64,000 nt of DNA from Candidatus Bathyarchaeota archaeon (GCA_963733095.1 CAVTBV010000014.1:1-64000), one strand, 5' to 3'; positions 10,364 through 30,806 are shown, numbered from the stretch's first letter. Numbers and translations: made by a program. Notes: generated by a model not told the origin, from the letters alone.

Positions 10364-10485
10364 GCCGGGGTATCCGAGCCAGGTCTAAATAGGCGGCCAG
10401 ATAATTTGATTGCCTAAGATATGGAGGAGGACTTAAGATCCTCTGGCGCAGGCCTTCGTGGGTTCAAGTCCCACCCCCGGCACCA
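10364..10485 (+). tRNA. tRNA-Leu(TAA) with a 34-nt D-loop intron (10389-10422) and encoded CCA
   Basis: GCCGGGG/CCCCGGC acceptor, GAGGA-CTTAAGA-TCCTC anticodon arm, long variable arm, BHB GTCT-AAA...AGAT-ATG. Confidence 0.95.
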
Positions 10486-10548
10486 TAATGTTGAATTAGT
10501 ACGGGGGTTTGTCCAGATGGCGACTGCGCCAAAAACGTATTTTTTTTG

Positions 10549-11850
10549 TCATGACAGATTCTTCTTTCTGAATAGTTTATGTCCTTCAAAATCGCATACA
10601 AAATCAAATCCAGATTCAATGAGAACACATGCTTCAGCTTCAGTCTTGGCGATCTTTGATATGTAGTCAATTTCGTCTTTGAATAGTGCTTCTTCTAGCT
10701 GGATGTAAATGAGTGTATTTTTGATGTTCTTGTGTCCGAGTCGGTTCATAACGTAGAGAACATCTTTGGTGCGGTGGTAATCCATTGTTCCTCCCCAGGT
10801 TCTTAGCGTTTTGAACATGATTTTTTTGAGTCGTGGGTTATGGAGTTTTTCGGCGATTCGGTTACGCTGTTGATCGTAGTTGTCTCTAAAGTTGTCTAGG
10901 CTCATCTCGGGGAGGGCAAAGTAGTATTTTCCGTATGGTCTGGGTAGATTGTGTAGCATGCCGACGAGTTTTGGGCTCATTTTGAAGATTCTGGGGTTGC
11001 TGTTTTTTTCTGGGGTGATGTTTACTGTGTTGGTTTCAAAGTCAAAGTTATCGTCGCTGCTGTGCCAGATTTCTCCTGGTCTTGCATGTGTTTCCTTGAT
11101 CAACTGCACAAATGTTCCGACTCTAATGCTTAGTCCAGCGATTAGTTGGTCTATTTCGGTTTCTTTTGGTACGAAGGGTAGCTTTGGGATTGATTTGTAT
11201 GTCGGCGGAGTCCAGGTTCCTCCAACCATAGCTAAATAACTGCTGTATGCATCGACAGCATTTGCTTTTCTGCCTTCACACCAGGTTGTCTGCTTGGAGA
11301 TAACGGTTTTCACTGATTCTGGGTCATTGAAGTCTCCGTTGCGTCGCCAAAGTATCTTTAGTAACTTAGTGCGGCCCCTGATTGTTGCTATGCGCCGTCC
11401 TTCTTTTTGAAGGTACCATTCGTATTTAGCAAGTGTAGAGTTTATGTCAAAGGTTTCTTTCCGCAGAACATCAGTTACCTGTTGCTCTGCAACCAAATTT
11501 TTCACTTCTGCGCATATTTGGCGAGAAACTACTATGCCACGGTCGCTTTTTAATTCCTTCGTATCAATGGATAAGTCGTCTTTCAACAAGTTTTTTGCCG
11601 CTTCAACATCTTGTGGGTCACTGAAGCGTAACCCGCATCGACGGCAGAACCAACGCTGAATCTGTGATCCAAACATCGATGTGTAAGTTCCATCACGCCA
11701 AACAGTCTTAGTTTTGGGACCACACTTTGGGCATTTAATGGGTTGAGATTCTTTTTGGGGACAAAGCGTTTGGCTTGATTGCCACTCTTCAGTAAACGCA
11801 TTTTGTGATCCTACAGAGATGAAATTTGAAGAGCTACTTCTCCCTGAACC
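10549..11850 (-). CDS. tyrosine integrase with an N-terminal Zn ribbon
   Basis: Catalytic R (HARPGE), K (EKN), KTLR, LGHKN and TLIY. The frame is open upstream of the Met at 11676 through CPKC...WRDG...CRRC, but has no in-frame start codon. Confidence 0.9.
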   Translation of the reverse strand, partial: GSGRSSSSNFISVGSQNAFTEEWQSSQTLCPQKESQPIKCPKCGPKTKTVWRDGTYTSMFGSQIQRWFCRRCGLRFSDPQDVEAAKNLLKDDLSIDTKELKSDRGIVVSRQICAEVKNLVAEQQVTDVLRKETFDINSTLAKYEWYLQKEGRRIATIRGRTKLLKILWRRNGDFNDPESVKTVISKQTTWCEGRKANAVDAYSSYLAMVGGTWTPPTYKSIPKLPFVPKETEIDQLIAGLSIRVGTFVQLIKETHARPGEIWHSSDDNFDFETNTVNITPEKNSNPRIFKMSPKLVGMLHNLPRPYGKYYFALPEMSLDNFRDNYDQQRNRIAEKLHNPRLKKIMFKTLRTWGGTMDYHRTKDVLYVMNRLGHKNIKNTLIYIQLEEALFKDEIDYISKIAKTEAEACVLIESGFDFVCDFEGHKLFRKKNLS

Positions 11851-11912
11851 TCAACCATAAACCCTAAGAAACCTCCCTTGGAGGCTGACCTTTATACTCA
11901 AAGTCTGGCATC

Positions 11913-14560
11913 TCAACTGTTGACTTTTAACTGCTTACGCTTCTCGTCACAACATTCCTTGTGAGCTGGCTTATTCTCCGAAAAACTACTCTGCTCCCAA
12001 TCATTATCCATAAGGGGTTTTTGGCAGAAGTAGCAGACAAGCTGCAAGTAACTGCCTGCGGTTTCTTCTTTAATGTAAAATTGTGCATGCTCTTGTAATT
12101 TGACTTCAGAATGTTCAGTAACTTCAGAAACTACAGTTTTCGATGGTGAATTATCGTTTTTTTGAGAAAATGTCGGTGATATATTAACTTCAGTAACTTC
12201 AGTGTTCAAGTGTCCTGTGAGGCTTTGTTTTCCCATGATTACTGAAGTTTCTGAGGTTTCTGGGGTTTCTGAAGTTAGTTGCGAACCGTTAGGGAAGTAT
12301 CTTGCTTTCAAGCGGTCAATTAGAGTAGCGTCCCAGAAGAACCCTGCTTGTCCTTTCCCGCCTACTCTGCACTTTTCAAAACCCAATGCGGCAACTTTTC
12401 GTCCTATGAATCGGCTGGTAGCTTGGTCTTTCTCAGTTAACCCGTCGTTGAAAACCTCAGTTATTGCTTGAGTGCTAATTTTTCCTCCATCTACTTTGCT
12501 ATCGCTTTTGAGAAGTGCATCAAAGATTCTGGCTTCTACGCTTGCTTGTTCTGCATCAAGTCTGCTCTGTGTTATCTGTTTCATGTGCGCTATCAGTTTC
12601 TTTTTGACTTCTTCCGTTGGTGCTACTTGAATAAGGCTTATGAATAGTTCAATCACTCGCGCATTGCGAAAGTCTGCGTTTTCATTAACAAAAGCCGCTA
12701 CCATATCATTGCTTGCTTTCCCCAGATTTCTGAAGCGATACATCAACAGTTTGTTTCTTAGGTTTTTGGCTTTGTCTTCATCCATGAAAAGATTTAGTTT
12801 TCTAACTGCTCGGCTCATTGCCGTTATGATGCATCGACTTTGAAGTGTAGCGGCTAATTCCTCAGTTCCTGCCATGGCTTTAAATCCGAAAGTATCAAAC
12901 ATCCCAATCTGAGGATTACCTTCTTCTGTTTTCTCTATTTGAATGGCATACTGGCCTCTTCGGTAGCCACTGTTTAGGAGAGCTAAGACTTCAGCCATGC
13001 TTTCTTTGTTGTAAATTTCTGTCTCATCCAAGAGCAGAGTTGGGTGCCAAGCTTATAGTGCTCGAAATATTGCTGCTGCACTCATAGAGGTTGAGAGAAG
13101 GGCACGATAGCAAAGGCGTTGTAAGCATTCTAAACCTTCCGTTTTACCACTGGAAAGTGGTCCGAGGAAGAAAAGATAGGGAATAACCTTGAAGTCTTCT
13201 GGTCTCCATGAGGCTAGAACAAAACATGAGTAGACATCATAGAATAACTCGTTAGGTACATCAATGTGTTCTACCATGAAAGAGCGGATTTCACAATAGA
13301 GACTTTCTTCGCTCTCATAGTCTGTGAATGATTCTATAGGAAGCCATGGAAGGCGCGGCAGGGGAAAATACTGTAGCTCGTTGATGGTGTAGTTTCTCCA
13401 GATGTCAGTGTTTGATTGTAGCTTCTGTTCTATACGGTTCCAAACAGCGTAGTAGCTACCTTGGGCTTCTGATTTTAGCTGCTCAAAGATTACTTCGGTC
13501 GTTACTATACCTGGGCTACTAATTGGTTTAGAATCATCGCAGTTTTTTGATATATTTTTCCTGCCTGATTTTCCTGATTCTCCATTGAATGAACAATTTG
13601 GAAGGCAATACCCTAATTCAGTTATGGAGTTGCAGGTAGGTGTCTTTTCCGGATCTGCACTTGATATTTGAGTCCTGCAGGTGTTTGAGTCGAAGTCTCA
13701 TTGTTGCCGGAAGAGGTCAATTATCTCGTCGTCGCTGTAGCCATGGCGTTTGTATTCAGCTGCTATAGCCAAGCGCATTCTGTGACCATTGGGACCTGTC
13801 AGCTGCAGCTTGAGAGCTTCAACAATACAGGGCCTTGGTCTGTTGGATCCTGATCTAGGTTGTACTGGTTGACCTGGCTGAACCTGTTCTTTGAGTAGAC
13901 CCTGCTTCTTCATTACTGAGTTGAAGGTCTGCTCTATGCTCTCTACTTCAGTAAGGCAGTTGATGTTGATTTTGCGGTAACCTAGGCTTGGCGCCATCAG
14001 GCAAAGTTTCTTATCACCTAATAGCTCCAAGCTTGCGGTGTTATGATAGGTTCCGATGGTTTTGGGCTTGGTTTTGCTCCGTAGATTAAATGTTGCCCCT
14101 TGTTAACGGTCTGCTCCATGCAGGTAATTGGGAATTCTTTGAGCAGTATTCGACCTTTCTCTTTCACTTCACCGGTGACGTCGTTGCCTTTGCAGTCATA
14201 ATCCACTACAGCGAGATAGAGGCCATTTCTTGCTTGAGTTCCCAGTACAATAGCAAAAGCGTTAGCGCCATTCCAGTCAAGAGTTATGAATTCCTCGTCT
14301 GTTTGAAGTTGCGTTTCCCATTTCTTCCAACTTGGTGTAAGGATTATCTTTTCGTATTCTTCGCCTTTCTTTATGAGTTTGAAAGGGATCATGCTGAGAC
14401 CTAATGCATGATAGCTTCCAGCAGTGGCCTTGAGTTCCTCTTCAGTGGGCTGTTTAACGGTCTCTTGCGTCTCTGTCACCTTTCTGCTTTTTTGGGGAAA
14501 ATTCGCTACATGCTTCGTCTCTTGCAATACGCCATATTCTTCCTTTAGTGCATCTGCCAA
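11913..14560 (-). pseudogene. primase-polymerase + PriL-like Cys domain + P-loop helicase replication protein, disrupted
   Basis: Prim-Pol motifs (LSMIP, LAVVDYD, GQHLIY); frameshift near 14081; TGA at 13698; TAA at 13053; Walker A GPLSSGKT and Walker B TLLLDE. Confidence 0.85.
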
Positions 14561-14591
14561 TCCAGTTTGTGCAGTCCCAACAGCGTTTCAT
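14454..14591 (-). CDS. small Cys-rich protein of the mobile element
   Basis: MKRCWDCTNWIGRC...ACSEFSPK. Confidence 0.45.
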   Translation of the reverse strand: MKRCWDCTNWIGRCTKGRIWRIARDEACSEFSPKKQKGDRDARDR

Positions 14592-14740: not shown

Positions 14741-15037
14741 CTACTCGACTTGCTGCTTGGCGATAAACTGGCGTTCCACGACTTTTGGTCGGTACGTTTC
14801 ACTACGTTCAAGTTCTTCCAGTTCAAGTCGATTTTCAATATAACTGCTAAGAATTCTGAGACTCTTCAAAACGAGACTGAGCGGTGTTTCTGAATTGTAA
14901 ATGACAGCTGTTCTTGTATCGCAGATTAAGTCAAGCTGATGGCCTAATTCTTCTCTTACTTCTTTAGGAAGGTAGTATTGCCCTTGAGGGTTGGCTTTTG
15001 TATGGAAGGTTACCATTTTTAACATATCCTTGTACAA
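14741..15037 (-). CDS. AbrB/SpoVT-like DNA-binding protein
   Basis: TKANPQGQYYLPKEVREELG. Confidence 0.75.
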   Translation of the reverse strand: MYKDMLKMVTFHTKANPQGQYYLPKEVREELGHQLDLICDTRTAVIYNSETPLSLVLKSLRILSSYIENRLELEELERSETYRPKVVERQFIAKQQVE

Positions 15038-15815
15038 AAAATATAACGCTGGGACACTTGACTACCAAGTGATGAAACAAGGTATGACACCTAGTAACAG
15101 CCCTAACCTTGAGAATCAAGTTCAATCGATTATTGAAAAGAAGGGTGCAGACGGTTGGATCCGAGTTAGTAAATGTGAAAAAGAATATGTAAATTCCAAT
15201 CCGGATGAAAACAGCAGCACTCGCCGAACAAAATTTTACCGGTGGCTTATAAAAGTCGAAAGAAAAAAAGTCCCTGGCTTTCAAATCATAAAATTTCCTA
15301 ATAACCTCAGCTATATCGGGCTTACAACTTCTAGCCCAAAAAAACTTGATTATCTTGTGACTAACGACAAAAAAGCAGCTCAGAGAGTGAGTTTTAGTGA
15401 AACCTTCTACATCAATGCTTTCAAAAAAATTGATGAAATATGCAACTTGGCAAACGGTAATAAATCACGTTATGCTTCTCCCGATGAAGCTTTGCTTGAA
15501 CTTAATTCTCTTATTGCGACTCTTCCAAGAGACTTAAAGGAAAAAATAAAGCCCCTGCAAGACCTAGCTATCAGTAAAGCGACAAAACAAGGAAGGATAC
15601 CGTTACAGCCAAAGTATTATCGCGGCTTAGTTGGAATGCTAAGTGATGAAGAAGACATTCCTGACAAAGAATTTCTAAATGATTGTTATAGTTGCGTTCA
15701 AGAGTTGGTTAAAGAAGTTTCGTCTCTTCTACACGAGTCCAAAGACAATTTAACGCTATTCGGTTTAAATCAAACCGATTGCAAAACGAAGGGAAGGCCT
15801 GAAGTTTCGGGCTGA
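14991..15815 (+). CDS. hypothetical protein, divergent from the AbrB-like gene
   Basis: 274-aa ORF; true start probably near 15072. Confidence 0.6.
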   Translation: MAFVWKVTIFNISLYKKYNAGTLDYQVMKQGMTPSNSPNLENQVQSIIEKKGADGWIRVSKCEKEYVNSNPDENSSTRRTKFYRWLIKVERKKVPGFQIIKFPNNLSYIGLTTSSPKKLDYLVTNDKKAAQRVSFSETFYINAFKKIDEICNLANGNKSRYASPDEALLELNSLIATLPRDLKEKIKPLQDLAISKATKQGRIPLQPKYYRGLVGMLSDEEDIPDKEFLNDCYSCVQELVKEVSSLLHESKDNLTLFGLNQTDCKTKGRPEVSG

Positions 15816-15915
15816 ATAATCGAATAAAGAAGGAAAGAAGAATGTGTGTGATTTTCTATCAATTGCTGATTAGATACAAAAAAATGGAAAATTGAAAAAG
15901 ACCTACCTTCGGAAT

Positions 15916-16191
15916 CTATCTTTTATCGTCTGTGCTGTGGAGTAGTTTTAATGCTTGAAGCAGAACGCCTGTTTTTGGGTTTTCTTTGTTTAGGTTAATA
16001 ATTCGCATTCGGACGATGTGCTTGTCGGTAACAATCCCTTGCTCTTGAAGAACTTGCAGCTCAGAATTCACTTGGGGATATTTACCGTTTATTCCAACTG
16101 TCAATCGCATGATGTTACATGAACCGTTTTCAACTAAGAACTTGATTATCTTTCGTCGACAAGAGGAAGACAATATCGTTTCTAAATCCAA
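15916..16191 (-). CDS. winged-helix (ArsR-like) regulator
   Basis: ILSSSCRRKIIKFL...NIMRL...VNSELQVLQEQGIV...RIINLNKENPKT. Confidence 0.8.
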   Translation of the reverse strand: MDLETILSSSCRRKIIKFLVENGSCNIMRLTVGINGKYPQVNSELQVLQEQGIVTDKHIVRMRIINLNKENPKTGVLLQALKLLHSTDDKR

Positions 16192-16573: not shown

Positions 16574-17170
16574 ATGACGACTATTTTTAGCGACGACTTT
16601 GAAAGTGGAGATTTCAGTGCTTGGACAGCAACTGAAAATTCGCCTACAATCACAACAACCCCAGTTCACCACGGCAGCCATGCTATGCAAGCGAATTTAG
16701 CCTCCTGGGCAGCTGCAAACTGCCGAGCAAGTAAAAACATAACATCTAGCTCAGCGGTGTATATGCGTTGCTATGTCCGAATGGAAGACCTCTTTACGGG
16801 TTCTGGCTTAAAAGGCATAGGACCACGCTTCTACTATAGTGGCGGTAGCTCAATTGCCTTTGTCATCGTTGATTGTCCAAACAATAAATGGGGCATTCGA
16901 AACAACGTAAGCTCAACAAGTTACTTTGAAAGCGGAACAAGCGCAATTAACCCAGACCAATGGTATTGTCTAGAACTTTACATTAATGTAAACAGCGCGT
17001 CTGGAGAACTAAAGCTATGGGTCGATGGAATCCTAAAGGTTGACCAAACAGGGCTCAACACAGGAACCAATAATGTAACAGGAGCTTCAGCCAATTCTTA
17101 CAGCCAAAACGCAGAAGGTACAACAAGAACACTCTACTTCGCCTTCACAAAGCCTCACACCAGTTCCTAG
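16574..17170 (+). CDS. concanavalin/LamG-like beta-sandwich protein, C-terminally truncated
   Basis: IFSDDFESGDFSAW...DQWYCLELY...LKLWVDG; GGAGGT SD. Confidence 0.7.
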   Translation: MTTIFSDDFESGDFSAWTATENSPTITTTPVHHGSHAMQANLASWAAANCRASKNITSSSAVYMRCYVRMEDLFTGSGLKGIGPRFYYSGGSSIAFVIVDCPNNKWGIRNNVSSTSYFESGTSAINPDQWYCLELYINVNSASGELKLWVDGILKVDQTGLNTGTNNVTGASANSYSQNAEGTTRTLYFAFTKPHTSS

Positions 17171-17294
17171 CCAATCTAGTGCTGGATCCTCGGTGTTGTT
17201 TGGGTTGAACTCCGAAGTCGTTATTGCAGTTCTGCTTGTGGTGGTTGTTGTGTTGTTGGTTTTTGTGATGTTTTATTTGCGCAAGCGAAGATAG
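17136..17294 (+). pseudogene. orphan S/T/P linker + TM anchor + basic tail, out of frame with the upstream gene
   Basis: TSPSQSLTPVPSQSSAGSSVLFGLNSEVVIAVLLVVVVVLLVFVMFYLRKRR*. Confidence 0.65.
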
Positions 17295-17781: not shown

Positions 17782-18080
17782 TTATGAAGAGAAGTCCATT
17801 GTCAGCGTCGGTTGTAGTTTTGTTTTTCTTTTTGCGGGGGGATGATAGAACATAACTTCTATTGGACTATGGCTTGTGTTTTCCTCTTTTTCTCGCAATC
17901 CAGCATCTGTGTCCTGATTATCTGAGCGAGTTTTTTCGTAATCAATAGATTTTAGTGCAGCAAGCAACAACATAGTTTTTGAATTCTTTTTGTTCAACCT
18001 AATGATCCTGATTCTCCCATGCCTAACCTTCACAGGATGTTGGTTGATTATTATGCCTTCTTTTTCCAGAATTGAAAAAT
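17782..18080 (-). pseudogene. C-terminal relic of a second wHTH regulator
   Basis: ILEKEGII...RIIRLNKKNSKTMLLLAALK aligns with the C-half of 15916..16191. Confidence 0.6.
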
Positions 18081-18361
18081 TCAGAACCTATTAAGATTAG
18101 ATTCGTCTTAATATCGTTGACAATAAGGGTGACAACAAAAAAAGGTACATTACTTTTTATGCTATAGGGCATCTAACAAAATTAGACTTCCAAGCAGTCT
18201 CGACAAGTCTGCATGCAGCTCTCTGCATTGAAAAAAATGTATGTTTTACCATTCTGAATTCTAAACAGGTAACTTATTGAATAATTATCTGAAGGAAAAA
18301 TCCTATTCTTGGAGAAAAAACCGCGTAAATTTTATAACTTTAGCTAAGTGATTAATATGTA

Positions 18362-19720
18362 ATGAAAAAGAGCTTCGCTGTGATCCTGTCAGTAATTGTT
18401 CTATTTTCTTGCATTATTGTAATTAGGCCTGTTGCTGGGGTATCTGTTATTCGGGATTCTTGGGTTTCTAAGGAGCCTATGAATCAGCCCAGAGCAGGTG
18501 TAGGTGTTGTCGCAGTCGACGATAAAATATACGCAATTGGTGGTACTTCTACGGCTCCTTTCATTTATCAAGTAGAAAATTTATTGAGCATAAACGAAGA
18601 ATACGACCCCAAAACAGACACATGGACAATAAAACCAAGTGTGCCCACTCCCAGAGCATATTTTGGGGTAGCCTCCATTGAAAACAAAATTTACTGCATC
18701 GGCGGAATAGTAGGTGTAGAGAAAGAAGAAATCGGGTCTATTATGCATACTTTTTCTGTTCATAGCGCTATAACTGAGGTTTATGATACAGGTTCAGAAA
18801 CTTGGGAAACAAAGGCATCCATGCCCACTATTGAGTCAAGATTTGAAGCTAATGCAGTAAACGGCAAAATTTACGCGATAGGCTCGCATTTTACTTACGT
18901 CTACGATCCAGCAACTGATTCATGGACAGAGAAAACGCCTTTTCCTGGCAGAGTTAGTGATTCTTGGTGGAACTCGCCAGTATCAACTGCTGTGGGTGAT
19001 GAAATATTTGTATCAGGGGAGTTTAGTACAGGTCAACGTTTGTTTGTTTATAATACCCTAAATGACAGCTGGAGCGAAATTACCACTGATGTTTTTGAGG
19101 CTGGTATTGGTGTAGGTGCAACGATTGGTGTTAGGGCTCCTGAGCGTGTTTATGTTTTAGGCTTGATTAATTGGAACTATGATCAAGTCAATCAAGTCTA
19201 TGACCCACTAACTGGTGATTGGAGTTCAGCTGCTCCGAACCCGATTGATCAGAGAGATTTTGGCTGTGTTGTCCTAAATGATGTTTTATACGTTATTGGT
19301 GGGTATGTTGAGTCAGGGGAGGTAACAGCTGCTAATCAAGCATACTACCCAATCGGTTTCAGCCCTTTGCCAGAAATTAGGGTTCTTTCCCCTGTGACGC
19401 AGACGTATAATGAATCAAATGTCTCCTTGGTTTTTACTGTAGATCGACCTGTTAGCTGGATCGGTTATAGTCTTGATGGCGCCGACAATGTTACTTTTAC
19501 TGGCAATTATACTTTGTCGGAATTATCGAATGGTGTGTATAACGTTACTGTTTTTGCTAGCGACTCTTTTGGGTATGTTGGGGCTTCAAAAACGGTTTCC
19601 TTTAGCGTTGCATCAAAGTCTATTCCGTACGTGCTTGTTGTGGGTGCTGTTTTAGCTATTGTTTTTGTATGTATAGTTTTGATTCTTCTTTTAAAGAGAC
19701 ACAAGCCCTCCAATCAATAG
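18362..19720 (+). CDS. secreted Kelch beta-propeller + Ig-like domain + C-terminal TM anchor
   Basis: Signal peptide; repeated KIYAIGG / YDP.TD.W; PVSWIGYSLDG Ig-like module; TM followed by KRHK. Confidence 0.9.
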   Translation: MKKSFAVILSVIVLFSCIIVIRPVAGVSVIRDSWVSKEPMNQPRAGVGVVAVDDKIYAIGGTSTAPFIYQVENLLSINEEYDPKTDTWTIKPSVPTPRAYFGVASIENKIYCIGGIVGVEKEEIGSIMHTFSVHSAITEVYDTGSETWETKASMPTIESRFEANAVNGKIYAIGSHFTYVYDPATDSWTEKTPFPGRVSDSWWNSPVSTAVGDEIFVSGEFSTGQRLFVYNTLNDSWSEITTDVFEAGIGVGATIGVRAPERVYVLGLINWNYDQVNQVYDPLTGDWSSAAPNPIDQRDFGCVVLNDVLYVIGGYVESGEVTAANQAYYPIGFSPLPEIRVLSPVTQTYNESNVSLVFTVDRPVSWIGYSLDGADNVTFTGNYTLSELSNGVYNVTVFASDSFGYVGASKTVSFSVASKSIPYVLVVGAVLAIVFVCIVLILLLKRHKPSNQ

Positions 19721-20231
19721 CTACAAAAAGTAAAGCATCACTAGTTGTTTATGACTAAGTAATTCGGTTTATTTAGTAATAACATTGTTAACAATAAACC
19801 TCAATTCAAAACTGAAAAACGGAAAATGGGGTAATATCTCATGATTAAACATTTATACTATTCAACTCTTGGCTAATTGGGGCAGATTTTCTTTAACGAA
19901 AGGTAGCATGACTATGCGTTTTTGGGTTGTAAATCGGCGGGATATGTTGTTTGTAGGATGCTATCCCCTTTTTGTAAATGATAGAGTTAGTAAATTCATA
20001 TGAATCCCCCAACAGTATGCAGAACAATTCGCAAAAAATGGAGCAAGTTCTTATTATGCCGCTCAACTGGATTTAAAAAAATGATTTAACAAATATCTTA
20101 TACTAGTTATCAACAAACAACAAACCAAATGAGTGCTTGAGTCAATATTGCGATGATTGGTCTGTACTCGTTTTTCCTGTGCAGGAGTAATTGATAGCAC
20201 ATACCAATTAAACATGGGGGATTGATTAGAA

Positions 20232-23203
20232 ATGGATAAGACTTCAAAACAAAAAGTGGCACTTGGATTACTATTAACTCTTTTATCAATTTCATTCATA
20301 TGCGCGTCGATAACACCGAGTGTACAAGCTGCTACACCTAATTATAAAGAAAAAGGCCTGAACTTTATGAGTGATGTAATGGGTCTTGACATAGCAAAAT
20401 ACACTGTAGTAGCGGAAGAAAGTACTGTTGACATGAGACCGTTTGGTGGTGTGCTCCAAGAATGTGTACTCTACAACCTTGCTTCCGACAAAAACATATT
20501 GCGTGTGTTTTTGAGTTTTACTAACGGAAATTTAAATGGACTTTATGCACTAGAAAATAGTGGTGACCCCATTGTTACTAAAATCGTTCAAGACACATCT
20601 GTTGCTAGTGCTCAAGCTTTTCTTGTTAATTACCAAATGTATACTGGCGACTTGGCTTACCAAGACTTCAGTAATACTTTAAACAACGTTGTTGCAGACA
20701 AGAATCTTACAAAAATAATTGGAGATAAAGTACTCCAAGTTACTACAACCAACGATAGTACTTCCTTTAAATGGTCGTATACATCTAATGGCGTTGTTGC
20801 TTCATATACAAAAACAGTATCTATGAGCTTTGAAAAGGGCTTCTTATCATCATTCTTTGATAACTGGGATATCTATCCTATAGGTAGCAATGTCATAAAC
20901 TTAAGTGAAGAAGAGGCAGTTGCAATTGCAGTAGATGTTGCTAAGCAACATTCCTGGTCAATGCAGTTGGATGAAGATACAATAAGTCCAACCAATTTCA
21001 ATGCTAACACAAGTTTGTCGTGGGTTAGTTTATCTTATGATGGATCATACAGTGCAAATGTAAGCCGTAGTGAAAATGTTTTTGAACTCTACCCAGTTTG
21101 GCGAGTTGGTCTTGTATTAAACAGAGTATACGGCGAACTATATGGCTTGCAAGTCGATATTTGGGCAGACACTAAAGAAATCAGAAGTGTTAATGAGCAA
21201 TATTCTCAATTGGCTGAAGAGTATTATAGTAAAACGAATGATTTTGTACAACCTGAAGTCAGTCAATCTTCAATCAGAAATTCAACCATGTGGATTTTAC
21301 CTCCAGTCGCCCTAAGTATGCTATTGGCAGTGTTCACCTTGATTTTTGGGAAAAATGCAGTGGCGTTGTCTACTCGAAAAAATCGATTTTTGAAATTAAT
21401 GGGCGTACTATTTTGTATTTTGTTGATGCTTGTGGTTTTCCTACCTTTAGTTCAAACTGCTAGTGCATCAAATGTCGGCATTATTTGGGGTTCCAGAAGT
21501 TCGGATGCAGTGAATCCACCTTATCAAAGCTGGCGTAAATTGAACTCAGAAATTTCCTCAGCGTCGAATATGACTAGCTATATAGCAACCAATTGCTTAA
21601 AAGCGGCAAATGGCTATACCGGCTATTCTAACTATGCAGTGGATAAAGACGTCATCCTCTATCAAGCGAATTACATGAACGACAATTATGATTATGTAGC
21701 AATTATTGATTGGAACCACGGTGTAACTGGTAAACCTGGCTTAGTCGATGGTTATGATGTGCCTGCCAATGAAGAACATTTTATGTTCGAAGATGATTCT
21801 GGAACGATCTGGGGTACATATTCTCAATATATTAGCAATAAGGCTTATTACACGGACTATAGCCATGGAGTCTACGACATGGATATGTATGAAATATTCC
21901 CCCCAAGCAAAGTTCACTTTGCTTTTATCAATACATGCATGTCCGCTAACGTAACTTTGCAAGGATACACGGCGGAAGGTAACCCGATTGGAATGCCATT
22001 GGGTCTTACTCATCGTATGGTAGATTATCCTAGAACGGGAACAGAAATGAGTCAGTTTGGTTATACCTATCCCGATAGTTTTCCACAATGTTACATTGGC
22101 TTCAAGTTTGGCTCAGCGGCATTAAACCAGTCTATTGCGTATGACGGTAGTTGTACTTATGGTCCCAGCTGGTCGACTTGGGTTGGCTCATTTTTTAACT
22201 ATGCGTTTAACTTTGATAATTCAATAAATGATGCACTCGACCTAGCATCGGCTTATACATGGAATGGAGATTGTGATGACTTCTCAGATAGCCCTCTAAG
22301 ACAAGAGTTTTCTGCACTATGGCCTTTTGACCGAAATGGCGATGGTATCCCTGATGATGACGACCCATATGATAGTTGCACTTTAGAAGTGTACGGTAAT
22401 GGCAATATACACCTAAAAAACTTCCAACCATCAGATTATGTAATGCAGCCCGACATTAGCGGTCCGACAAGCGGCACTGAAGGGATAACATACCAGTTCA
22501 GTGGACGCTCAATTGACAGCCATGGCGATAATATTCAATACAGATTTGATTGGGATGATGGTAGTGGCTATGGTTATTCGGGAGAGATGTCTAATGGCGA
22601 GTGGGGCTCAGCAACGCATTCGTGGAATAGAGGAATATACGATGTGCGTGTTTCAGCTCAATGTTCAGATGACACTTGGAGTAGCTGGTCTGATTACTGT
22701 ACTATAACTGTAGGTGAGCCTACGGTGAGTTTCTATGACACACATCTCTACTACGGTGGTCAAATGAATATGTGGGTTTATGTAGATGGCGATGGCGGTC
22801 ATCAAATGCCCTATGAGAGCGACATTTCTACAACAACCACACACGACTTGGAATTCTACGAAGTCTATGGTTACGTATGGGTTGATCATGTTGATCATTA
22901 CCACGGCTCGACAACCACATACTACAGCAACTATCAGATGACATATCCGTATCTGATGGCGACTACTTTACAGTCTATTATGATACCTGGAGCGCATTTA
23001 TGATGAGAATGGACGATTTGGGCTATGACGAGAAATATATTGAAAGTCTTGTCTTAGATGAAGGAATAAGTCCACAGGTGCTAAACAGCTACATCAAAGC
23101 AGGATACAACCTAAATGCAGTCAGCGTCCTTCTTGATATGGGCTTCCAAGCAGAAGCCTTCCAGCCAATAGAATTCATTCAATCAGTAACTTGTAATAAA
23201 TAA
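20232..23203 (+). CDS. large bipartite secreted/membrane protein (N-domain, 2 TM, putative His-Cys peptidase-like domain, PKD) with a frameshift near 22931
   Basis: IDWNHG and FAFINTCMSA motifs; PKD-like IQYRFDWDDG...HSW; an alternative frame from ~22933 (SDDISVSDGDYFTVYYDTWSAFMMRM) continues into ORF 23000..23203. Confidence 0.75.
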
Positions 23204-23569
23204 ACACACATCTTTTCTCTTTTTTTGGATCCTAAATTCGACAGCGCCAACTAAGTCTTTATCATTCAATCATCAACAGCGTCTGTTGCAGTTCTTTCTG
23301 TTTTTCGTTTTCTTAGCTTTGAAAAGGGGACTAATACAAAATAAAGAAACAAAAACCCAATGAATAGAAATTGTAATCGGAGACAAAGGTGCTGATTCGA
23401 GTTTTTCCTTGCTTTTGCCATTTTGGACGTATTTTTTCTCTAAAATTATCAAACATTACTTGCCGCTCTCTTAATTCGGTTTAAAATCAAAAATAGTGCT
23501 GAATAGACAAAGAAAAAAGGGAAGACTGCGAAAAGAAACCTACCTGTTCTGGCGATATCGCCATGGTAC

Positions 23570-23597
23570 TGGGAGTTCAAGTCCCATCCCCAGCTCT
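23570..23597 (+). repeat. degenerate att copy 2 (tRNA-Leu 3' end)
   Basis: GGGAGTTCAAGTCCCATCCCCAGC, preceded by the palindrome TGGCGATATCGCCA at 23550-23563. Confidence 0.75.
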
Positions 23598-23622
23598 TTG
23601 TCTTAAACCCATATACTTGATT

Positions 23623-23806
23623 TTACTTGCGTTTTCTGAAAAGCTTCAGGTTATCCATTTCTGTAACGTATTCATAGCCTGCTTCGATTAGCTCTTTGGC
23701 TTCTTTAACGTTCTCCTTCTCCGCTGTTTTACAAATGAAATCATCGTTGTCAAAGGTTACTAGTTGAGTATAGATTAGTGTGTTTTTGATATTTTTGTGC
23801 CCTAGT
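23623..23806 (-). pseudogene. integrase C-terminal relic 2
   Basis: LGHKNIKNTLIYTQLVTFDNDDFICKTA...LIEAGYEYVTEMDNLKLFRKRK*. Confidence 0.88.
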
Positions 23807-24490: not shown

Positions 24491-25258
24491 TCAGGGGCCA
24501 GGAAAGTTTTTGGAAATGGCTGTTTGTCCAGCAGATGCATAAACGGTAAAGGTTGTAATGTAATCTGAAGCTGGGTTCACGACAGCGTTGAGTGACGGAC
24601 CCATGAAGTAACTTATGGTTACGTTATACGTATGTTCATTCTTCAAAGTAACGGAGTAATTTCCAAAGGGATTGTAGCTCTGTTTGGAAAAGGAAAAACT
24701 AAAAGAAGTCACCAAACCTGTTTGAATGTCGGTAAATTCTATTTTTTGTATAGATGTGAACCACGGTTCAGCTAGAGCAGCACTACTTGCTCTCCCTGAC
24801 ACAGTTACATTACCAGTTAAAACCGACACAATAATTGAAGCATTTACTGACTGCTTATCGGTTGATGCAACAATAGTGATAGAGTAGTTACCTGTTGGAG
24901 CAGAATAAGGTATGCTCATAGTTAGAACGCTTGTAAAGTTAGAGTTACCAATTGAAGGCTCAAAGATGCAATTTATTCCGCTTGAACCGCTATTACTGCT
25001 TAACGTTATATTTTCAGCTTTACCAATTGAAGTTACATTAATCTGGGCTCGAAGCTTATTTCCTTGTATCACGCTTGGTTGGTTTAATGAAACATTAAGA
25101 TTAATTGCAGTTGGTTTGTTAGTTATTGGTTTGTTAGCTATTGATGGCTGATAAACCAAGATTAAGAAAGCAAATGAAGCAACCACAAGCACAACTATGA
25201 TTACAGCGACAATCAGGGAATTCCTACGGTTGGTTGAAATTTGAGCCATCGTTAACAT
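24491..25258 (-). CDS. membrane-anchored Ig-like exported protein
   Basis: N-terminal TM; S/T/N-rich beta strands (APTGNYSITIVAS); many N-x-S/T sequons. Confidence 0.75.
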   Translation of the reverse strand: MLTMAQISTNRRNSLIVAVIIVVLVVASFAFLILVYQPSIANKPITNKPTAINLNVSLNQPSVIQGNKLRAQINVTSIGKAENITLSSNSGSSGINCIFEPSIGNSNFTSVLTMSIPYSAPTGNYSITIVASTDKQSVNASIIVSVLTGNVTVSGRASSAALAEPWFTSIQKIEFTDIQTGLVTSFSFSFSKQSYNPFGNYSVTLKNEHTYNVTISYFMGPSLNAVVNPASDYITTFTVYASAGQTAISKNFPGP

Positions 25259-25333
25259 ATACCTTCTTGGTCATTTTAACTTGCAATGCAAAATTAATAA
25301 ATAAAAAATGAAATTTTTGCTTTGATTCAGTCC

Positions 25334-26191
25334 CTATGGTTGAGCAGTAGGATGAAATAAGTCTTCTTGCGGCAGTTGAGCTGAAGGCACAAGGTCGTTG
25401 TGGAGAAAACCGCTTTCATAATTGCCAAGCTGTACCATGTCTGCTGAAGTATTGTTTGGCGGTTCTTCAAAGACGGTAACTAATCCGTTTGTTATCGTTA
25501 TGCAACCAATTCTGTAGATAGTAACCGAGATAGCATTTGGTTTTCCTGCGCTGAATAGTCCTAATGCACTGCTGGTCGCTTGGGTATAAGTCGTAATGGA
25601 GCCAAGAGTGTTTGTTAAAAATGATATGCTGCTATCCCAATTAAATTTAAAGTTGCCTGCAAGGCTGCTATAAAGACTAGCATTATACAAGTCAGGTATA
25701 TATTGAATTAAGGTCGATAGGGACGCATTCGAAAACGATGCAGTGTAGTTGGTTCCTACAAAATAAGCATCGTACTCTGCGGGCCCTGTATCTGTAGCAA
25801 TTTTGATTCCATAGACTTCAGCAATTGCATCGCAATTGGGAAATTGCGCTCCCGGAATTGACGTAATATTCAACCTTACTACTGCTGGATATTGGCTGAC
25901 TAGTCGCATTGTAGTGTTCCTTGCTTGGTCGAAATACGTGCTTACGTTAGAGGGCGCTGGTCCAACATATGCATATGCTACTTGTATTTGAAACTGTGTC
26001 TTTGAAGATGCCACTTCATGAGGAGCAGTAAGCATGTTTGTTTGAGCAGGAGGTTGGAAAGAAGTTGTTGTGGCTAAAGCGAGTGAGATTGGAATAGCAA
26101 GCATGAGTGCAATAATCAAGCCTAGAGCAATCTTTCCCTTATTATTGGCAAATAGAGATTCGCTGAGTTTCTTTCTTTTTGACATTACCAA
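25334..26191 (-). CDS. exported hypothetical protein
   Basis: Signal/TM segment, then IQVAYAYVG...DAIAEVYGIKIATD; overlaps the upstream gene. Confidence 0.75.
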   Translation of the reverse strand: MVMSKRKKLSESLFANNKGKIALGLIIALMLAIPISLALATTTSFQPPAQTNMLTAPHEVASSKTQFQIQVAYAYVGPAPSNVSTYFDQARNTTMRLVSQYPAVVRLNITSIPGAQFPNCDAIAEVYGIKIATDTGPAEYDAYFVGTNYTASFSNASLSTLIQYIPDLYNASLYSSLAGNFKFNWDSSISFLTNTLGSITTYTQATSSALGLFSAGKPNAISVTIYRIGCITITNGLVTVFEEPPNNTSADMVQLGNYESGFLHNDLVPSAQLPQEDLFHPTAQP

Positions 26192-26892
26192 TCACCGCCA
26201 TCGCTGTATGGATGTGCCGTTAGGAAGGCATAAGGCGAAATTCCTGAGGGAATGCTGTGTCCTGGAGGAACCTGAGTCTGAGCGTAGTAATAGTCAACTG
26301 TATTAGGGTTACTATTGTAATAGAATGCGCCAACGGTCATGCCTTCGGCTGAAACGTGGTCACCAAAACTCCAATAGGACTGGTAGCTTACGACGCTGGC
26401 ATAATATCCGCCGAGACTGCACCAGTTCCCATTAAAATAGTAACCGTTTGTCCACGTTCCGCTATCATAGTCATAGTAATCAGAGTGGTATGCGGTGGAT
26501 AGGCCGTAGTCAAGGTCATAAACGCGATCCATCGGCGGCATCGAATGTACTGGCGAGTTATCAGTAGTGCTTTGACTGTTTCCCGCTTGGGTACTAAACC
26601 ACCAGCTTCCATAGTCATAATAGTATTGGTTGCTTGTGTCGTAGTAGGTATACAAGCCGAGTCCGACCATCATATCGTCGCTATAGCTGAGGTGTGAATG
26701 CTCGCACTCGCCATACATTGGATAATCTGGACCAAATTGACAGCCATTGTTTACAAAAGTTTCATAACTGTAGCTATTACCTGAGGGTCCCTCTGCTACA
26801 ACGCTCCGTATTGTCATTGGCAGGGCTATCATTAATGAAATAAATACAAGCGCAAATATTGTTATACGTATTTTAGGCAATCCTTTCACCAC
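26185..26892 (-). CDS. secreted Tyr/Ser/Asp/Gly-rich protein
   Basis: Signal peptide ending VVA; mature part almost lacks Lys/Arg and is very Tyr-rich. Confidence 0.72.
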   Translation of the reverse strand: MVKGLPKIRITIFALVFISLMIALPMTIRSVVAEGPSGNSYSYETFVNNGCQFGPDYPMYGECEHSHLSYSDDMMVGLGLYTYYDTSNQYYYDYGSWWFSTQAGNSQSTTDNSPVHSMPPMDRVYDLDYGLSTAYHSDYYDYDSGTWTNGYYFNGNWCSLGGYYASVVSYQSYWSFGDHVSAEGMTVGAFYYNSNPNTVDYYYAQTQVPPGHSIPSGISPYAFLTAHPYSDGGDW

Positions 26893-28042
26893 TTTTGCAC
26901 TACGAGTGCTTAGTATATAAAGCGGCTGAGTTTCCGCTCGGCGGTTAAAAATTTATGGAACCCGCAAAAAATTCTTTATACGTTATTTATGATGCAATTA
27001 ATTCGCTTTTGTTTTTTAAAAATAGGAAAGTATATGCAAAATTCTTTTCTATAGAAAGATAAATACACCATATCTTGAATTTCTTAATATAATCAACCGA
27101 TTTGTTGCTAAATCGCATAGTTACTAGCACAAGTATGAAAACAGCATTAAGTAAATTCCCAAATTTACTTTTATAAGCACCGCGTTTTAAAAATCCGTTT
27201 ATTTTTCATATACTCCCCTTTCCGTTAAAGCTTAGCCAACTATTCATTGAAAGCTTCATTCTTAGCCACTTCGTTTTCAATTTCAGCTGCTCTTTTAGAG
27301 GCATCTTGCTTTTCCTTAACTGTTTTCTAAGAGGCCCTTGACGGTTTTCCAGTTTGCTGTAACACTCGAAACAACACTGTTGCTTCCGAGCTCAAAGCCC
27401 TCTCTAATGCTCGCTCATTAGTCTGAGTTCAATCAGTTTTCGATGGATCTGGGGTGAAGTACCTCGAGCCATTTCGTTCTCTCTTGGAAAGATTGAATCG
27501 ATTGATACAGCAAAACCCGTCAGCCCATAGTTTGTCAGAGTGTTTACTTCTTGATGGGTTAGGTTAAGCGAGCTTTCGTCTACACATTAACTGGTGAATC
27601 GTCACCACATTCAATGTCACAAATGGATCCTTGCAGATCATTTACAATTTCTCTAGTTTTAGCACGTAATTGTCGAATGAACGGCATGCCTGGTGTAACG
27701 GCTCTATCAAGAACAAAGAGGCACTTGAGGTATTCATTGTCTTGCTAATATTTTTCTGCCTTTAACAATTGATACTTAAGGTTGTGATTGTAATTTGCCA
27801 TCATCAATTGTTATCATGTTACCTATGCTATCAAGTTATCGATTAAAACTTCTTAGCAACTTCATTACCGCTCTCTGAATTGCAGGGTTAACGGTGAAAA
27901 AGGAAAAATGAAGGATAAATTCTCCTTTAGCAGGCGAATTCCACCAAACCCTTTCTATATAAAATTGAAGCTAGAAAAGATTTCGCAAAAAAGGGAGAGA
28001 AGCTGCTTAGGCGAGCAGTATTGGCGATATCGACAACGGATA

Positions 28043-28069
28043 TGGGTTCAACTCCCACCCCCGGCACCA
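28043..28069 (+). repeat. att copy 3 (near-perfect tRNA-Leu 3' end)
   Basis: 26/27 match to 10459-10485; preceded by TGGCGATATCGACA. Confidence 0.9.
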
Positions 28070-28112
28070 CAGTGGTAAAACATACTGGCGGTTTACGCGG
28101 CTGATGATTGTG

Positions 28113-28745
28113 CTATTCTCTTTTCAGGAAAAGCTTGTTTCCGTTGAAGCCGCATACGAAGTCAAATCCTGTGTCAATTAACGAGCATGCTTCACCTTCA
28201 GTTTTTGCTACTTTGGGGATGTATTCTATTTCGTCTTAAGATAGTTCCTCCGCGAGTTGCACATAGACGCGGGTGTTTTCGATGCGTTTGTAACCTAACA
28301 CTTGTTTGAGGTAGAGAATGTCTTTGTTCGTGATATTCCATTTTGCTTTTCCAGTGTCTAAGAGTATAAATGTTATCCTTATTATTCGAGGCCTCTTGAG
28401 TTTGAAGACTAATCTTTTCCTTGTCGAGCGAATATGTCCATGTGAGAGTCGGAGCCTTGGTTGGGAATTGAGAAGATTCTTTCTATGCAGTCTTTAGGTA
28501 GTGCTTCGAGTATGCTTTTGAGTTTTGGGTTAATTTACCAAATTTATCACTTGCCCATTGGCGAATGGATTCGCGCATATTTGGCATCTAGAACTTTTGC
28601 CCGAAGTCACATTAAATGATTTGGCCGCACCATTTTCAGAGAAACGGTTTCCACATTCGCTGCAGAGGTAAACTCTTTCTTGCTAATGTGAATAGTTGCT
28701 GTTGCTGATCAAAAAGTTCAGCGGTTAACTCGCACACTAGGCATC
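28113..28745 (-). pseudogene. integrase relic 3 (Zn ribbon + catalytic end, internally deleted)
   Basis: YLCSECGNRFSE near 28640-28670; KDILYLKQVLGYKRIENTRVYVQL...ACSLIDTGFDFVCGFNGNKLF. Confidence 0.85.
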
Positions 28746-28795
28746 ACCAATAATGTAATAAGCTATTGTCAGACTTTGTTTTATGGGGTTAACGT

Positions 28796-30280
28796 TTGAA
28801 ACTTCAAAAAGCACTTATGTCAATTCTTATGGTATGCTTTACTTCTTTTACTTTGGTTATGATGGCTGTTGCTGCCCAAAGTGGGGGATTGAATTTGGAG
28901 GCTGAGCAGAATTGGGATACTTATGGGGTTGGTGGAACCTGTGTATATGGAACTCAAAACATTTTTGTCGGTGACTTGGATGGTGATGACACGGGCGAGA
29001 TGATGACTGGAGGGTTTGCCTACCATATTAACCAAAATGGAACAAGAACGGTAAGTGAAGCGCCCCTAAAAGTTTGGGCTTGGAATGGACAAAATGTCAC
29101 CCTTAAAGCAAGCACAAGTTGGAGCGGCACAATCTATTGTCTTTATGCCGCGGACGTAGACCAAGACGGGACGATAGAAATATTATGCGGTGGCTCGTTT
29201 AGAAATGAAACCGGAAATTCAACAAGTTCTATGAGAGTCCTAAAGCTAAGTAATGGACATTTGGACCTAAAAGCTCACTATGAAGGTATCCCTGTTAACT
29301 CAATATTTGTAAGCGACGTCGACAAGGATGGGACAAATGATTTACTAACAGTTGGTCGGAGCGTTAGTAACACTTCGCAACTTTCAATTTGGCATATCGA
29401 AGGAAACAAGCTCACGCTAGTTAAAAGTTTGCCGCTGGAAGAAGCTAATATTACAAGCTCTAACTCAGTTCACGCAAGCGATTTGGATAATGACGGTAAA
29501 ATAGAGATAATGGTTGGAGGTTATTCAGATTCTCTTTCAGAAAGCAAAGGACTAGTAAGCATTTGGGGATGGAACGGACAAGAGCTTAAACTGAAGACAG
29601 TGAAAACTTGGCAGTTAGCTGAAGGCTCAGCTAAAACTATTGCTGGAGGAGTCCAGGGTAATACTGTTGTTTACAATGTAAAAGCTGCTGATTTAGATAA
29701 GGATGGAAAAAAGGAGATGGTTACAGCAGGGTCTACTTATGATGGCGTAAATGTAAATGGTGAGATTAAGGTTTGGCGTTGGAATGGAAGCGGTTTGATA
29801 GAGCTGGCAAGCCAGGAATGGGCTACCGATTACATGACTGAGGCAAAGAGCATTACATTAAACGACGTTAATGGAGACGGAAAAGTCGAGATTATAGAAA
29901 GTGGCATAGCAGCCGCAGAAGGCAGTTTTAACAACCCAGAAGGTATCCACGATAGGGGAGAACTGAGAGTATTGAGCTATAATGGAACCAGCCTCGTTTT
30001 GGAAGAAAACAAGAATTGGACGTTTGACGAAGGAGCTTGCGCATGGAACGTCGGTGTCGGAGACGTTGACGATGACGGTGTGGTGGAAATAATTACGGTT
30101 GGATGCAGTGCTTTAAAGGGTCAATGTGACCCTGATATGCGTATCTGGTCACTACCAGTAAAACAACAAGCGTACCCAAACTATTTACCATACGCCATAG
30201 CTGGTCTGCTTATTTTTACAGGCGCTTCTTCTATTGTTTACGTATACCTCATGAGAAAGAGATCCAGAAGCATAAAATAA
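28796..30280 (+). CDS. FG-GAP/VCBS-repeat beta-propeller surface protein with C-terminal TM
   Basis: Signal peptide; seven DxDxDG..E/D repeats; TM followed by RKRSR. Confidence 0.88.
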   Translation: MKLQKALMSILMVCFTSFTLVMMAVAAQSGGLNLEAEQNWDTYGVGGTCVYGTQNIFVGDLDGDDTGEMMTGGFAYHINQNGTRTVSEAPLKVWAWNGQNVTLKASTSWSGTIYCLYAADVDQDGTIEILCGGSFRNETGNSTSSMRVLKLSNGHLDLKAHYEGIPVNSIFVSDVDKDGTNDLLTVGRSVSNTSQLSIWHIEGNKLTLVKSLPLEEANITSSNSVHASDLDNDGKIEIMVGGYSDSLSESKGLVSIWGWNGQELKLKTVKTWQLAEGSAKTIAGGVQGNTVVYNVKAADLDKDGKKEMVTAGSTYDGVNVNGEIKVWRWNGSGLIELASQEWATDYMTEAKSITLNDVNGDGKVEIIESGIAAAEGSFNNPEGIHDRGELRVLSYNGTSLVLEENKNWTFDEGACAWNVGVGDVDDDGVVEIITVGCSALKGQCDPDMRIWSLPVKQQAYPNYLPYAIAGLLIFTGASSIVYVYLMRKRSRSIK

Positions 30281-30463
30281 CAAATGCGCCAGTATAAACG
30301 CTTTTACTGCGTGTTATTTTTTTTCGATGTGCTCCATTTCTTGAACTCGTCAAGCATGCCTTGACTCACAGGGGGATCTTTAATTTCTCCCCAACACCAA
30401 ATAAAAAAGACAATAAAGTAAATTAGTTCTCAAGACATAACAAAAACTTTCGCCACTGGGTAG

Positions 30464-30490
30464 CGGGTTTAAGTCCCACCTCCAGCACTA
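30464..30490 (+). repeat. degenerate att copy 4
   Basis: CGGGTTTAAGTCCCACCTCCAGCACTA, followed by ACGGGGTTTTGTCC-TGGCGA as after att 1. Confidence 0.78.
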
Positions 30491-30557
30491 CTTATAAATA
30501 AAATAACGGGGTTTTGTCCTGGCGATGTCTGAAGTTAAATTCGAGCTTTTCATTTTA

Positions 30558-30806
30558 TTATCTCTTCCTGAATAGCTTGTGGAAATCGAAATCACATAAA
30601 TTCAAATCCTGCTTCTATAGCACGCAGGCTTCAGCTTCTGATTTGGCTACCTTTGAAACGAAGTCTACATAGTCCTGGAATAACCCTTCCTCGAGTTTGA
30701 ATGTAAATCAGCGTATTCTTGATGTTTTTGCGACCTATCGCCTGTATGACATATAAGGCCTCTTTGGTTCTATGGTAATCCATGGTTCGTTTTCAAGTTC
30801 GCAATG
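30558..30806 (-). pseudogene. integrase relic 4
   Basis: TMDYHRTKEALYVIQAIGRKNIKNTLIYI...FVSKVAKSEAEAC...HKLFRKR, with frameshifts. Confidence 0.85.

Follow-up and report, generated by a model that had tools for sequence, protein, structure and literature searches.

Reciprocal Leu/Cys hybrid attachment sites within an array of integrase-bearing modules at a tRNA-Leu(TAA) gene of a Bathyarchaeota archaeon

Downstream of a tRNA-Leu(TAA) gene in Candidatus Bathyarchaeota archaeon lie three further sequences resembling the 3' end of a tRNA, and the locus raises the question of what kind of array this is and how its junctions came about. The stretch analysed, hereafter the window, comprises 64,000 nucleotides (nt) (GCA_963733095.1 CAVTBV010000014.1:1-64000; C14:1-64000) of a genome of 2.84 Mb in 16 contigs, which we call G000. 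The original prediction, made from the window's sequence, had described four stacked modules at tRNA-Leu, each with an attachment (att) site and an integrase, forming an integron-like array; the four sites and the four integrase ends stand, but two of the sites are not copies of tRNA-Leu, and the comparison with integrons does not. We label the stretches between att1 and att2, att2 and att3, and att3 and att4 as E1, E2 (module 2) and E3, respectively, and the stretch beyond att4 as E4; attL, attR and attB denote left, right and chromosomal sites. The sites and integrases are these:

10364..10485, plus strand: tRNA-Leu(TAA) with an intron in the D-arm, the anchor of the array (attB/attL), recognised by ARAGORN after intron removal
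10462..10485, plus strand: att1 core, T-loop GTTCAAGT and Leu acceptor end, the left end of E1
10549..11858, minus strand: int1, a tyrosine integrase of the Leu-targeting clade (PF00589, 27.2 bits against a cut-off of 27.1)
23504..23574, plus strand: att2 left arm, the right end of a Leu-type element (E1), carrying the TGGCGATATCGCCA palindrome and matching the Leu attR arms of G073, G005 and G135 at 84-86%
23575..23602, plus strand: att2 core, a hybrid of the Leu T-loop joined to the tRNA-Cys 3' end and flank
23629..23805, minus strand: int2 relic of the tRNA-Cys clade, 59 codons, stop-free
27980..28045, plus strand: att3 left arm, the right end of a Cys-type element (E2), matching the Cys attR of G127 and G085 at 87-89% and a second arm in G000 (C13:76223-76292) at 86%
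28046..28069, plus strand: att3 core, the reciprocal hybrid of the Cys T-loop joined to the Leu 3' end
28119..28670, minus strand: int3 relic of the Leu clade, a C-terminal piece (28119-28421) with one stop and an N-terminal zinc-ribbon piece, the middle being deleted
30447..30490, plus strand: att4, a degenerate Leu-type junction with a truncated left arm
30561..30819, minus strand: int4 relic of the Leu clade, with a frameshift and stops

The anchoring tRNA-Leu(TAA), the only full-length match in G000, is missed by ARAGORN at default settings and was called as Leu(taa) once its intron had been removed in silico. The four tRNA-3'-like sites are in register, with first positions 10459, 23572, 28043 and 30464 (the original prediction had placed three of them exactly so and the second at 23570), and over 27 nt they match att1 at 27, 20, 26 and 22 positions, respectively, the 26/27 match of att3 agreeing with what had been reported before. 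Between 10487 and 36300, three copies with at most 5 mismatches of 24 were observed, against none in 200 Markov simulations, and the 3' end of a minus-strand integrase lies within about 30-70 bp after each site. No fifth att was found up to 37000, nor a closing att for E4 within 9 mismatches of 24.

Compared position by position, att2 and att3 are reciprocal Leu/Cys hybrids and not tRNA-Leu copies. The att2 24-mer matches the end of the genome's own tRNA-Cys(GCA) gene (C10:9977) at 23/24 positions and Leu at 19/24, the Cys gene being its best match in the genome and the match extending into the flank; after the T-loop, it agrees with Cys at 16/17 positions and with Leu at 9/17. The third site is composed the other way round, its left half following Cys (14/16) and its right half Leu (14/17). 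The 7-nt T-loops of the two tRNAs differ at one base, and att3 has there the C allele carried by G000's own tRNA-Cys; across 71 att-like sites of the fetched loci, G was seen in 0/33 Cys-ended sites and C in 0/38 Leu-ended ones. The flanking arms, compared with loci picked by their similarity to the window, fall out in the same crossed pattern: the 70 bp left of att2 score 89, 85 and 73 against Leu attR arms and at most 35 against a Cys arm, and the 70 bp left of att3 score 99 and 97 against Cys attR arms and at most 28 against a Leu arm. Each of the four junctions has an integrase end, att2 combining a Leu arm and loop with a Cys end and a Cys-clade integrase, and att3 showing the reverse. 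The exact att2 core was found in 1/120 genomes of the genus and an att3-type core in 2/120; the second of these is in G098, on a contig of 4,650 bp that shows no partner site. G051 has a comparable site, considered as another hybrid, but what lies to its left is a Leu body, and it was set aside as a point mutant. The earlier attempt to read age from the better preservation of att3 over att2 fails because att2 is a near-perfect hybrid, half Leu arm and half Cys end, and not a decayed Leu site.

Two further Cys-type sequences in G000 may be recorded beside these sites. Behind the tRNA-Cys gene itself (C10:9977-10052) stand the final few codons of a Cys-clade integrase. The orphan Cys-type attR arm at C13:76223-76292 has a Ser-type att copy some 170 bp away and may belong to another Cys element inside an array that is not of Cys type.

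The integrase ends tell the same story as the sites. The three relics, as they had been described before, are 45-56% identical to int1, and they belong to two lineages. In a search that was enriched for Cys loci, the best 19 non-self loci of the int2 relic comprised 15 at a complete tRNA-Cys, 3 at a Cys-type end, 1 that is cut off and 0 at Leu, and among all 29 non-self loci 19 lie at tRNA-Cys, 1 at tRNA-Phe and 4 at no recognisable site; the relic is 90% identical to an integrase end of intact length in G008. In a tree of 60 rows built from the last 180 nt, a short alignment with several open forks, INT2 is nested in the Cys clade (support 99/98), and INT1, INT3 and INT4 group with Leu(TAA) integrases (support 81/85). 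The int1 family is present in 53/61 genomes (two of the match listings drawn on in this work took in the best 150 of 188 and the best 150 of 234 matches), and its close members sit at tRNA-Leu (TAA), (TAG) and (CAG), from which it follows that the clade has switched across loop variants; the integrases of L176, L177, L178 and L179, 70-83% identical to int1, lie at tRNA-Leu(TAG) and (CAG). Among the viral contigs searched (viral_contigs), no close relative of int1 was confirmed. Plain elements of either kind occur in relatives, a Leu element in G073 (integrase 74%, arm 84% to the arm left of att2) and a Cys element of about 34 kb in G127 (integrase end 81%, attR 87% to the arm left of att3).

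We consider it probable, with a good measure of doubt, that the locus is a tandem stack of decaying elements at tRNA-Leu(TAA) whose hybrids att2 and att3 arose when a single tRNA-Cys element inserted into a near-cognate Leu/Leu junction. On this account E4, then E3, then E1 would have integrated at the tRNA T-loop, each displacing the older one outward; the Cys element E2 would then have recombined with the E1/E3 junction, the loop of which is one base off the Cys loop; and later deletions and point lesions would have stripped the integrase 5' parts and the replication genes. Several points weigh against this history. The tree just cited rests on those 180 nt and on loci preselected by similarity to the window, the loop base is not absolute (T occurs in 3/38 Leu-ended sites), and the order of E3 and E4 is based on position and decay only. 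Contigs were examined from 8/24 listed sequencing runs, all from other populations and none from the source sample; in these, no contig spans a junction in the context of the window. Moreover, integration of phage Ms6 is reported to be blocked by a single T-loop mismatch (PMC1762012), and because of this the cross event needs a mismatch tolerance that is assumed here for the Leu and Cys enzymes; the same block fits the rarity of the hybrid.

A further point against the favoured history is that a cointegrate would yield the same end structure. Here E1 would first have fused with a tRNA-Cys element that had already decayed, either in circular form or where that element sat at tRNA-Cys; the composite 10459-28069 would then have integrated at tRNA-Leu through its Cys-arm/Leu-end site, an outcome in which the earlier idea of a nested 10459-28069 unit holding a captured module survives as the main rival. 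We judge this unlikely, while giving it real weight, since it produces the same two hybrid sites; E2 is, moreover, only 4.5 kb long and retains a 59-codon integrase end, compared with the ~34-kb Cys element of G127, while E1 keeps most of its core, and co-transfer of a cis-mobilizable element (CIME) with an integrative and conjugative element (ICE) is described in a passage of the review on such elements (PMC5704250). Against it, at least two recombinations across a mismatched loop would be required instead of one, the stop-free int2 relic with its 90% identity to the integrase end of G008 shows no extra point decay, and no E1+E2 composite was found, the att2 core being present in 1/120 genomes as already mentioned.

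An origin without any integrase, by illegitimate recombination at the short identity of the two T-arms, could place the exchange in the 5 nt following the mismatched base of the loop and would sidestep the mismatch that bars the Ms6 integrase (PMC1762012); we regard it as very improbable, as the two products are exact and reciprocal, have no gaps and keep complete arms on either side, and the exchange falls at the T-loop, where the identity between element and tRNA begins in the ordinary attR sites of relatives. Slighter still is the probability of an assembly chimera, in which pieces of different loci or organisms were joined at repeated tRNA ends. The genome is a metagenome assembly, and one of its contig breaks falls at tRNA-Cys (start of C11). 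Yet what the Leu and Cys ends have in common is a stretch of only about 12 nt containing a mismatch, probably too short for an assembler to swap flanks; the flank of the G000 tRNA-Cys is only 81% like that of att2, and two independent misjoins would need to be exactly reciprocal. In addition, of 123 G000 genes that could be tested, only 5 are broken, two of which belong to mobile elements, and this makes the lesions in the array more likely decay than assembly error. A joint of 23595 to 30704, examined as a candidate excision product, consists of a 21-nt side and 183 other letters, and was dismissed as the Cys att and integrase of another organism.

Returning to the favoured insertion of E2 into the E1/E3 junction, the hybrids have consequences for the tRNA gene. 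Direct insertion of E2 into the tRNA is unlikely because the only reader of UUA would have received a Cys acceptor end. Excision of E1 alone (att1 x att2) would in turn give the sole tRNA-Leu(UAA) a Cys-type acceptor end with a C3:A70 mismatch and U73. A73 is an identity rule for archaeal tRNA-Leu. As its excision alone would damage the tRNA, E1 should therefore leave only together with E2 or after it.

Whether anything in the array can still move depends on int1, which had been called catalytically intact and had been credited with excising the older modules in trans. The gene, whose 3' end lies at 10549-11676, does retain the catalytic R, K, K/H, R, H and Y, with an H-to-K change that is also present in its close relatives. 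However, int1 is the only one of 29 listed near-full-length rows (26 distinct) without an in-frame ATG, GTG or TTG before the first CxxC, and the ATG at 11858 that matches the start of its homologues is out of frame. From its reading frames, int1 is thus likely to be broken at the N-terminus with its native start lost, which renders excision in trans doubtful; a 375-amino-acid (aa) product without half of the zinc ribbon is possible. Many matches within the genus begin at residue 75-90 of int1. The array is likely to be immobile now unless an incoming relative supplies an integrase.

This bears directly on the integron-like platform of the original prediction, in which a resident int1 would capture, reorder and excise downstream modules in trans. 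One near-complete integrase does lie nearest the tRNA, Leu and Cys arms share a TGGCGAT..TCGCCA motif, and short att-separated units without integrase matches exist in G108, G047, G057, G063 and G095; integrons, including archaeal ones, likewise hold att-separated gene blocks downstream of a tyrosine recombinase, as set out in parts of a preprint (10.1101/2022.02.06.479319). Nevertheless, the array is not an integron, and a platform working in that manner is scarcely credible. int1 reaches 19.2 bits against the TIGR02249 (IntI) cut-off of 265, with no stretch passing; every module has an integrase end of its own, of a different lineage; and the modules are multi-gene units of 2.4-13 kb with genes in both orientations, where the integrons of that preprint have IntI, attC hairpins and short co-oriented open reading frame (ORF) cassettes. 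The sites are copies of the tRNA T-arm, whose folds on both strands, judged without an attC covariance model, show only T-arm and short arm hairpins (z -2.0 to 0.8); the strands of att2-4 fold no better than shuffles in 5/6 cases (z -1.4 to 0.8), the remaining one having z -2.0. Beyond the missing start of int1, relatives' Leu loci show no shared module in altered order, and no circular junction was seen in the contigs of the 8 runs. As to the cassette-like units of relatives, the arrays L083, L084, L085, L086 and L087 (G108, G047, G057, G063 and G095, respectively) contain 3-4 Leu/Cys att copies 0.5-2.5 kb apart, mostly without integrase matches and some repeating the tRNA from the anticodon arm, and resemble a cassette array more than the window does.

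What does hold is accretion of att-bounded modules at a tRNA, and the same locus in relatives agrees with it. Of 17 same-genus tRNA-Leu(TAA) loci, taken in the orientation of the tRNA and some of them very short, none has the window's cargo except for a 33% Kelch match in G017. The site is empty or otherwise filled: backbone genes lie 1.2-4.6 kb from the tRNA in G002, G010, G023, G003, G013, G004 and G022, and other elements occupy it in G001, G015 and G016. The array has one target gene with chimeric junctions, decayed members with both att sites (E2 and E3, with integrase relics only) and one, E4, without a closing att. Stacked architecture is common in the genus, with multi-att stacks at Leu or Cys in G108, G047, G057, G063, G095, G098, G101 and G073, and att plus integrase-relic units in G064, G081, G115 and G108 as well as in G098 and G073. 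In L096 (G106) and L097 (G014), Cys-type att sites lie 3' of tRNA-Leu(TAA) in opposite orientation.

Three groups of known systems grow in a comparable fashion, each described here from the parts of the sources that deal with them. Accretion of ICEs, integrative and mobilizable elements (IMEs) and CIMEs (PMC5704250) likewise proceeds by successive integration at a tRNA 3' end, with older members decaying yet keeping their att sites, chimeric junctions and complex excision of composites; the present array differs in being archaeal, in lacking recognised conjugation or relaxase genes, in modules that keep integrase 3' relics, and in placing a Cys module on a Leu anchor, where the example of the review has both elements at one tRNA-Lys. 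No conjugation or relaxase family was found among the ORFs scanned, some of which remain without an assigned family. The cryptic integrated elements (CIEs) of Thaumarchaeota and tandem arrays of archaeal integrated mobile genetic elements (iMGEs) (PMC6563490, PMC8371274) share a tyrosine integrase beside a ~24-bp tRNA att, an intron-containing target, a primase-helicase gene, a size of less than 20 kb, re-use of the site that leads to arrays, and capture after integrase loss or integration at a secondary site. E1 has the tyrosine integrase, tRNA att repeats and replication gene of a CIE, with no virion or conjugation genes recognised, but its integrase belongs to a Bathyarchaeia lineage with an N-terminal zinc ribbon; furthermore, the switching of pT26-2 integrases, as covered in the iMGE review, stays within tRNAs with or without an extra loop, whereas the present array is of class II (Leu) and harbours an element of class I (Cys). 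The tycheposon islands of Prochlorococcus (10.1101/2020.12.28.424599) are also seeded at tRNAs, with newer elements pushing older ones outward, partial tRNAs between them, fragmented integrases further in and cargo left behind, but theirs, in the sections concerned, are island-specific integrases (one tRNA, one clade), whereas two specificities are combined here. Each of the four att cores comes after the stop codon of the integrase, unlike the suicidal arrangement of the Sulfolobus spindle-shaped virus (SSV) type, with att inside an integrase gene that is split on integration. An SSV-like split integrase is found in the tRNA-Ser(GCT) element of G000 (C13:76050-94451); there, the att copy at 87154 opens the C-terminal piece and is read in its frame, and that peptide also overlaps the tRNA end. 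Bathy-6 islands are mentioned in PMC11697101, without att arrays in the passages concerned. In the literature covered, with most subscription journals and all supplements outside its scope, we found no description of reciprocal two-tRNA hybrid att pairs or of Bathyarchaeia tandem arrays; examples may be listed in Table S2 of PMC6563490 or in the supplement of the tycheposon paper.

The contents of the modules, which show how far each has decayed and where its cargo belongs, are as follows:

11913..14560, minus strand: primase-polymerase/helicase replication gene of E1 (PF09250), broken, with a frameshift near 14060-14078 and two in-frame stops
14741..16191, strand unassigned: small ORFs of E1, of 98 aa, of 274 aa without a family, and an ArsR-like helix-turn-helix ORF (NF033788, below cut-off)
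16574..17290, plus strand: LamG/polysaccharide-lyase-like gene, cut short (PF14099, 34.4 against 29.9), with a 76% homologue in G073
17942..23372, plus strand: cargo block of a Kelch gene (18362-19720) and a 990-aa membrane or exported gene
24491..26892, minus strand: E2 cargo, three ORFs with N-terminal hydrophobic segments and no family match, with paralogues at C6 and C13 of G000
28796..30280, plus strand: FG-GAP beta-propeller gene, cargo of E3 (PF13517)
31018..36141, strand unassigned: unbounded distal zone with a YegP-MscL paralogue, a broken YegP piece, a dispersed repeat, KamA and TrkA

Decay of the replication gene, as originally proposed, is confirmed by G083 and G084, where it forms single frames of 888 and 906 aa, the 906-aa ORF of G084 mapping to 14467-12090 across the frameshift. 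The 98-aa ORF we take to be AbrB-like, a label given by eye. A search of PHROGs returned only an integrase, a primase and two families of unknown function, and hence no support for a viral origin. The earlier statement that most cargo stays open holds for part of it: Kelch, FG-GAP and DUF1508-MscL pass their Pfam cut-offs, but the LamG-like ORF stops ahead of a membrane anchor that a six-frame view locates in another frame, and the 990-aa gene is frameshifted here near 22935 to 923 aa, the extra T at 22935 being present in contigs from all 4 runs of one of the sets examined. N-terminal hydrophobic segments are found in the Kelch protein, the 923-aa protein, the three E2 proteins and the FG-GAP protein. 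A peptidase-PKD label for the 923-aa product lacks support, as no Pfam, PHROG or NCBIfam match supports a peptidase and the PKD match lies below cut-off; the ESM Atlas gave leads only, DUF6345 at 0.88 and Peptidase_C25 at 0.87 (29% of members). The run contigs give no proof of transcription: short contigs of X18 (RNA) match inside the 990-aa gene at 99% or more, and the 14-kb contig of X16 looks like DNA.

As for where the cargo came from, the block 17942-23372 aligns with L124/L125 over 5,436 bp at 98.6% identity and with L126 at 97.4%, the core genes of the L124/L125 host being only 72-76% identical to those of G000. Contigs from each of the four studies in one of the sets examined also carry the block, but not what surrounds it in the window. 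The 98.6% identity of this 5.4-kb block in another species implies that it has recently moved and has not long been domesticated. Contigs of the examined runs match mainly 17243-23369, and their lack of cover for other modules is not evidence of the absence of these. The FG-GAP gene has a copy in G060 (87% aa, 89% nt) behind a different att and integrase relic, and paralogues of the E2 genes, of FG-GAP and of YegP-MscL occur at other places in G000. Because only 2 candidates per genome were scored in the DNA search across the genus, weaker matches to the cargo may have escaped it. With broken cargo genes, such paralogues and the recently shared block, the proposed ratchet of domestication finds little to sustain it, and we infer that the cargo is surface-protein DNA circulating among Bathyarchaeia islands, not a dedicated cassette pool. 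In its other host, the near-identical Kelch/990-aa block has a truncated 5' part of tRNA-Arg(CCG) some 2.5 kb away (L125:15600-15700).

YegP-MscL had also been counted as array cargo; it lies beyond att4 in the zone without a closing att. The two DUF1508(YegP)x2-MscL fusion genes of the window, at 3160-4014 and 31018-31926, are 84% identical; the MscL part also occurs at C6, and the end of C15 repeats the 3160-4014 copy. The dispersed repeat of about 200 bp at 32833-33044 has 10 other blastn matches in the genome and no Rfam match, and in two places it precedes an att-like site by about 70-100 bp. Past the distal zone, the backbone in common with relatives starts again at a GNAT gene (36264). 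At 37761-38981, genes for a tail tube (PF06841) and a CIS tube (PF19266) stand without other injection-system genes nearby and recur at the locus in G012 and G057. At gathering score, Rfam found only a tRNA at 4966-5023 within 1-40000; a tRNA-Arg(CCT) with a D-arm intron lies there on the minus strand (4955-5081).

The array itself is ordinary, well-preserved island growth by tandem integration, an already known mode at tRNA genes, and the hybrid pair is its noteworthy part. With a Cys-clade relic between them, the two hybrids are an unusually clean natural record of near-cognate integration, and they name exact substrates for testing how tRNA targets are switched across the divide between class I and class II. 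The pair also suggests a simple route by which a passenger element could lock its neighbour in place. From the shared 5.4-kb block, surface-protein genes have passed between species of Bathyarchaeia very recently. More speculatively, and on balance doubtfully, the Leu- and Cys-targeting integrases of Bathyarchaeia may tolerate the one-base loop mismatch in general, making their tRNA att sites one interoperable network in which an E1+E2-like composite has two addresses and the hybrid site acts as a ratchet. If this were true, one hybrid site would rebuild tRNA-Leu and the other tRNA-Cys, surface-protein cargo would shuttle between tRNA loci and species, and the ratchet would be a true one, as excision of the proximal element alone would ruin the sole tRNA-Leu(UAA).

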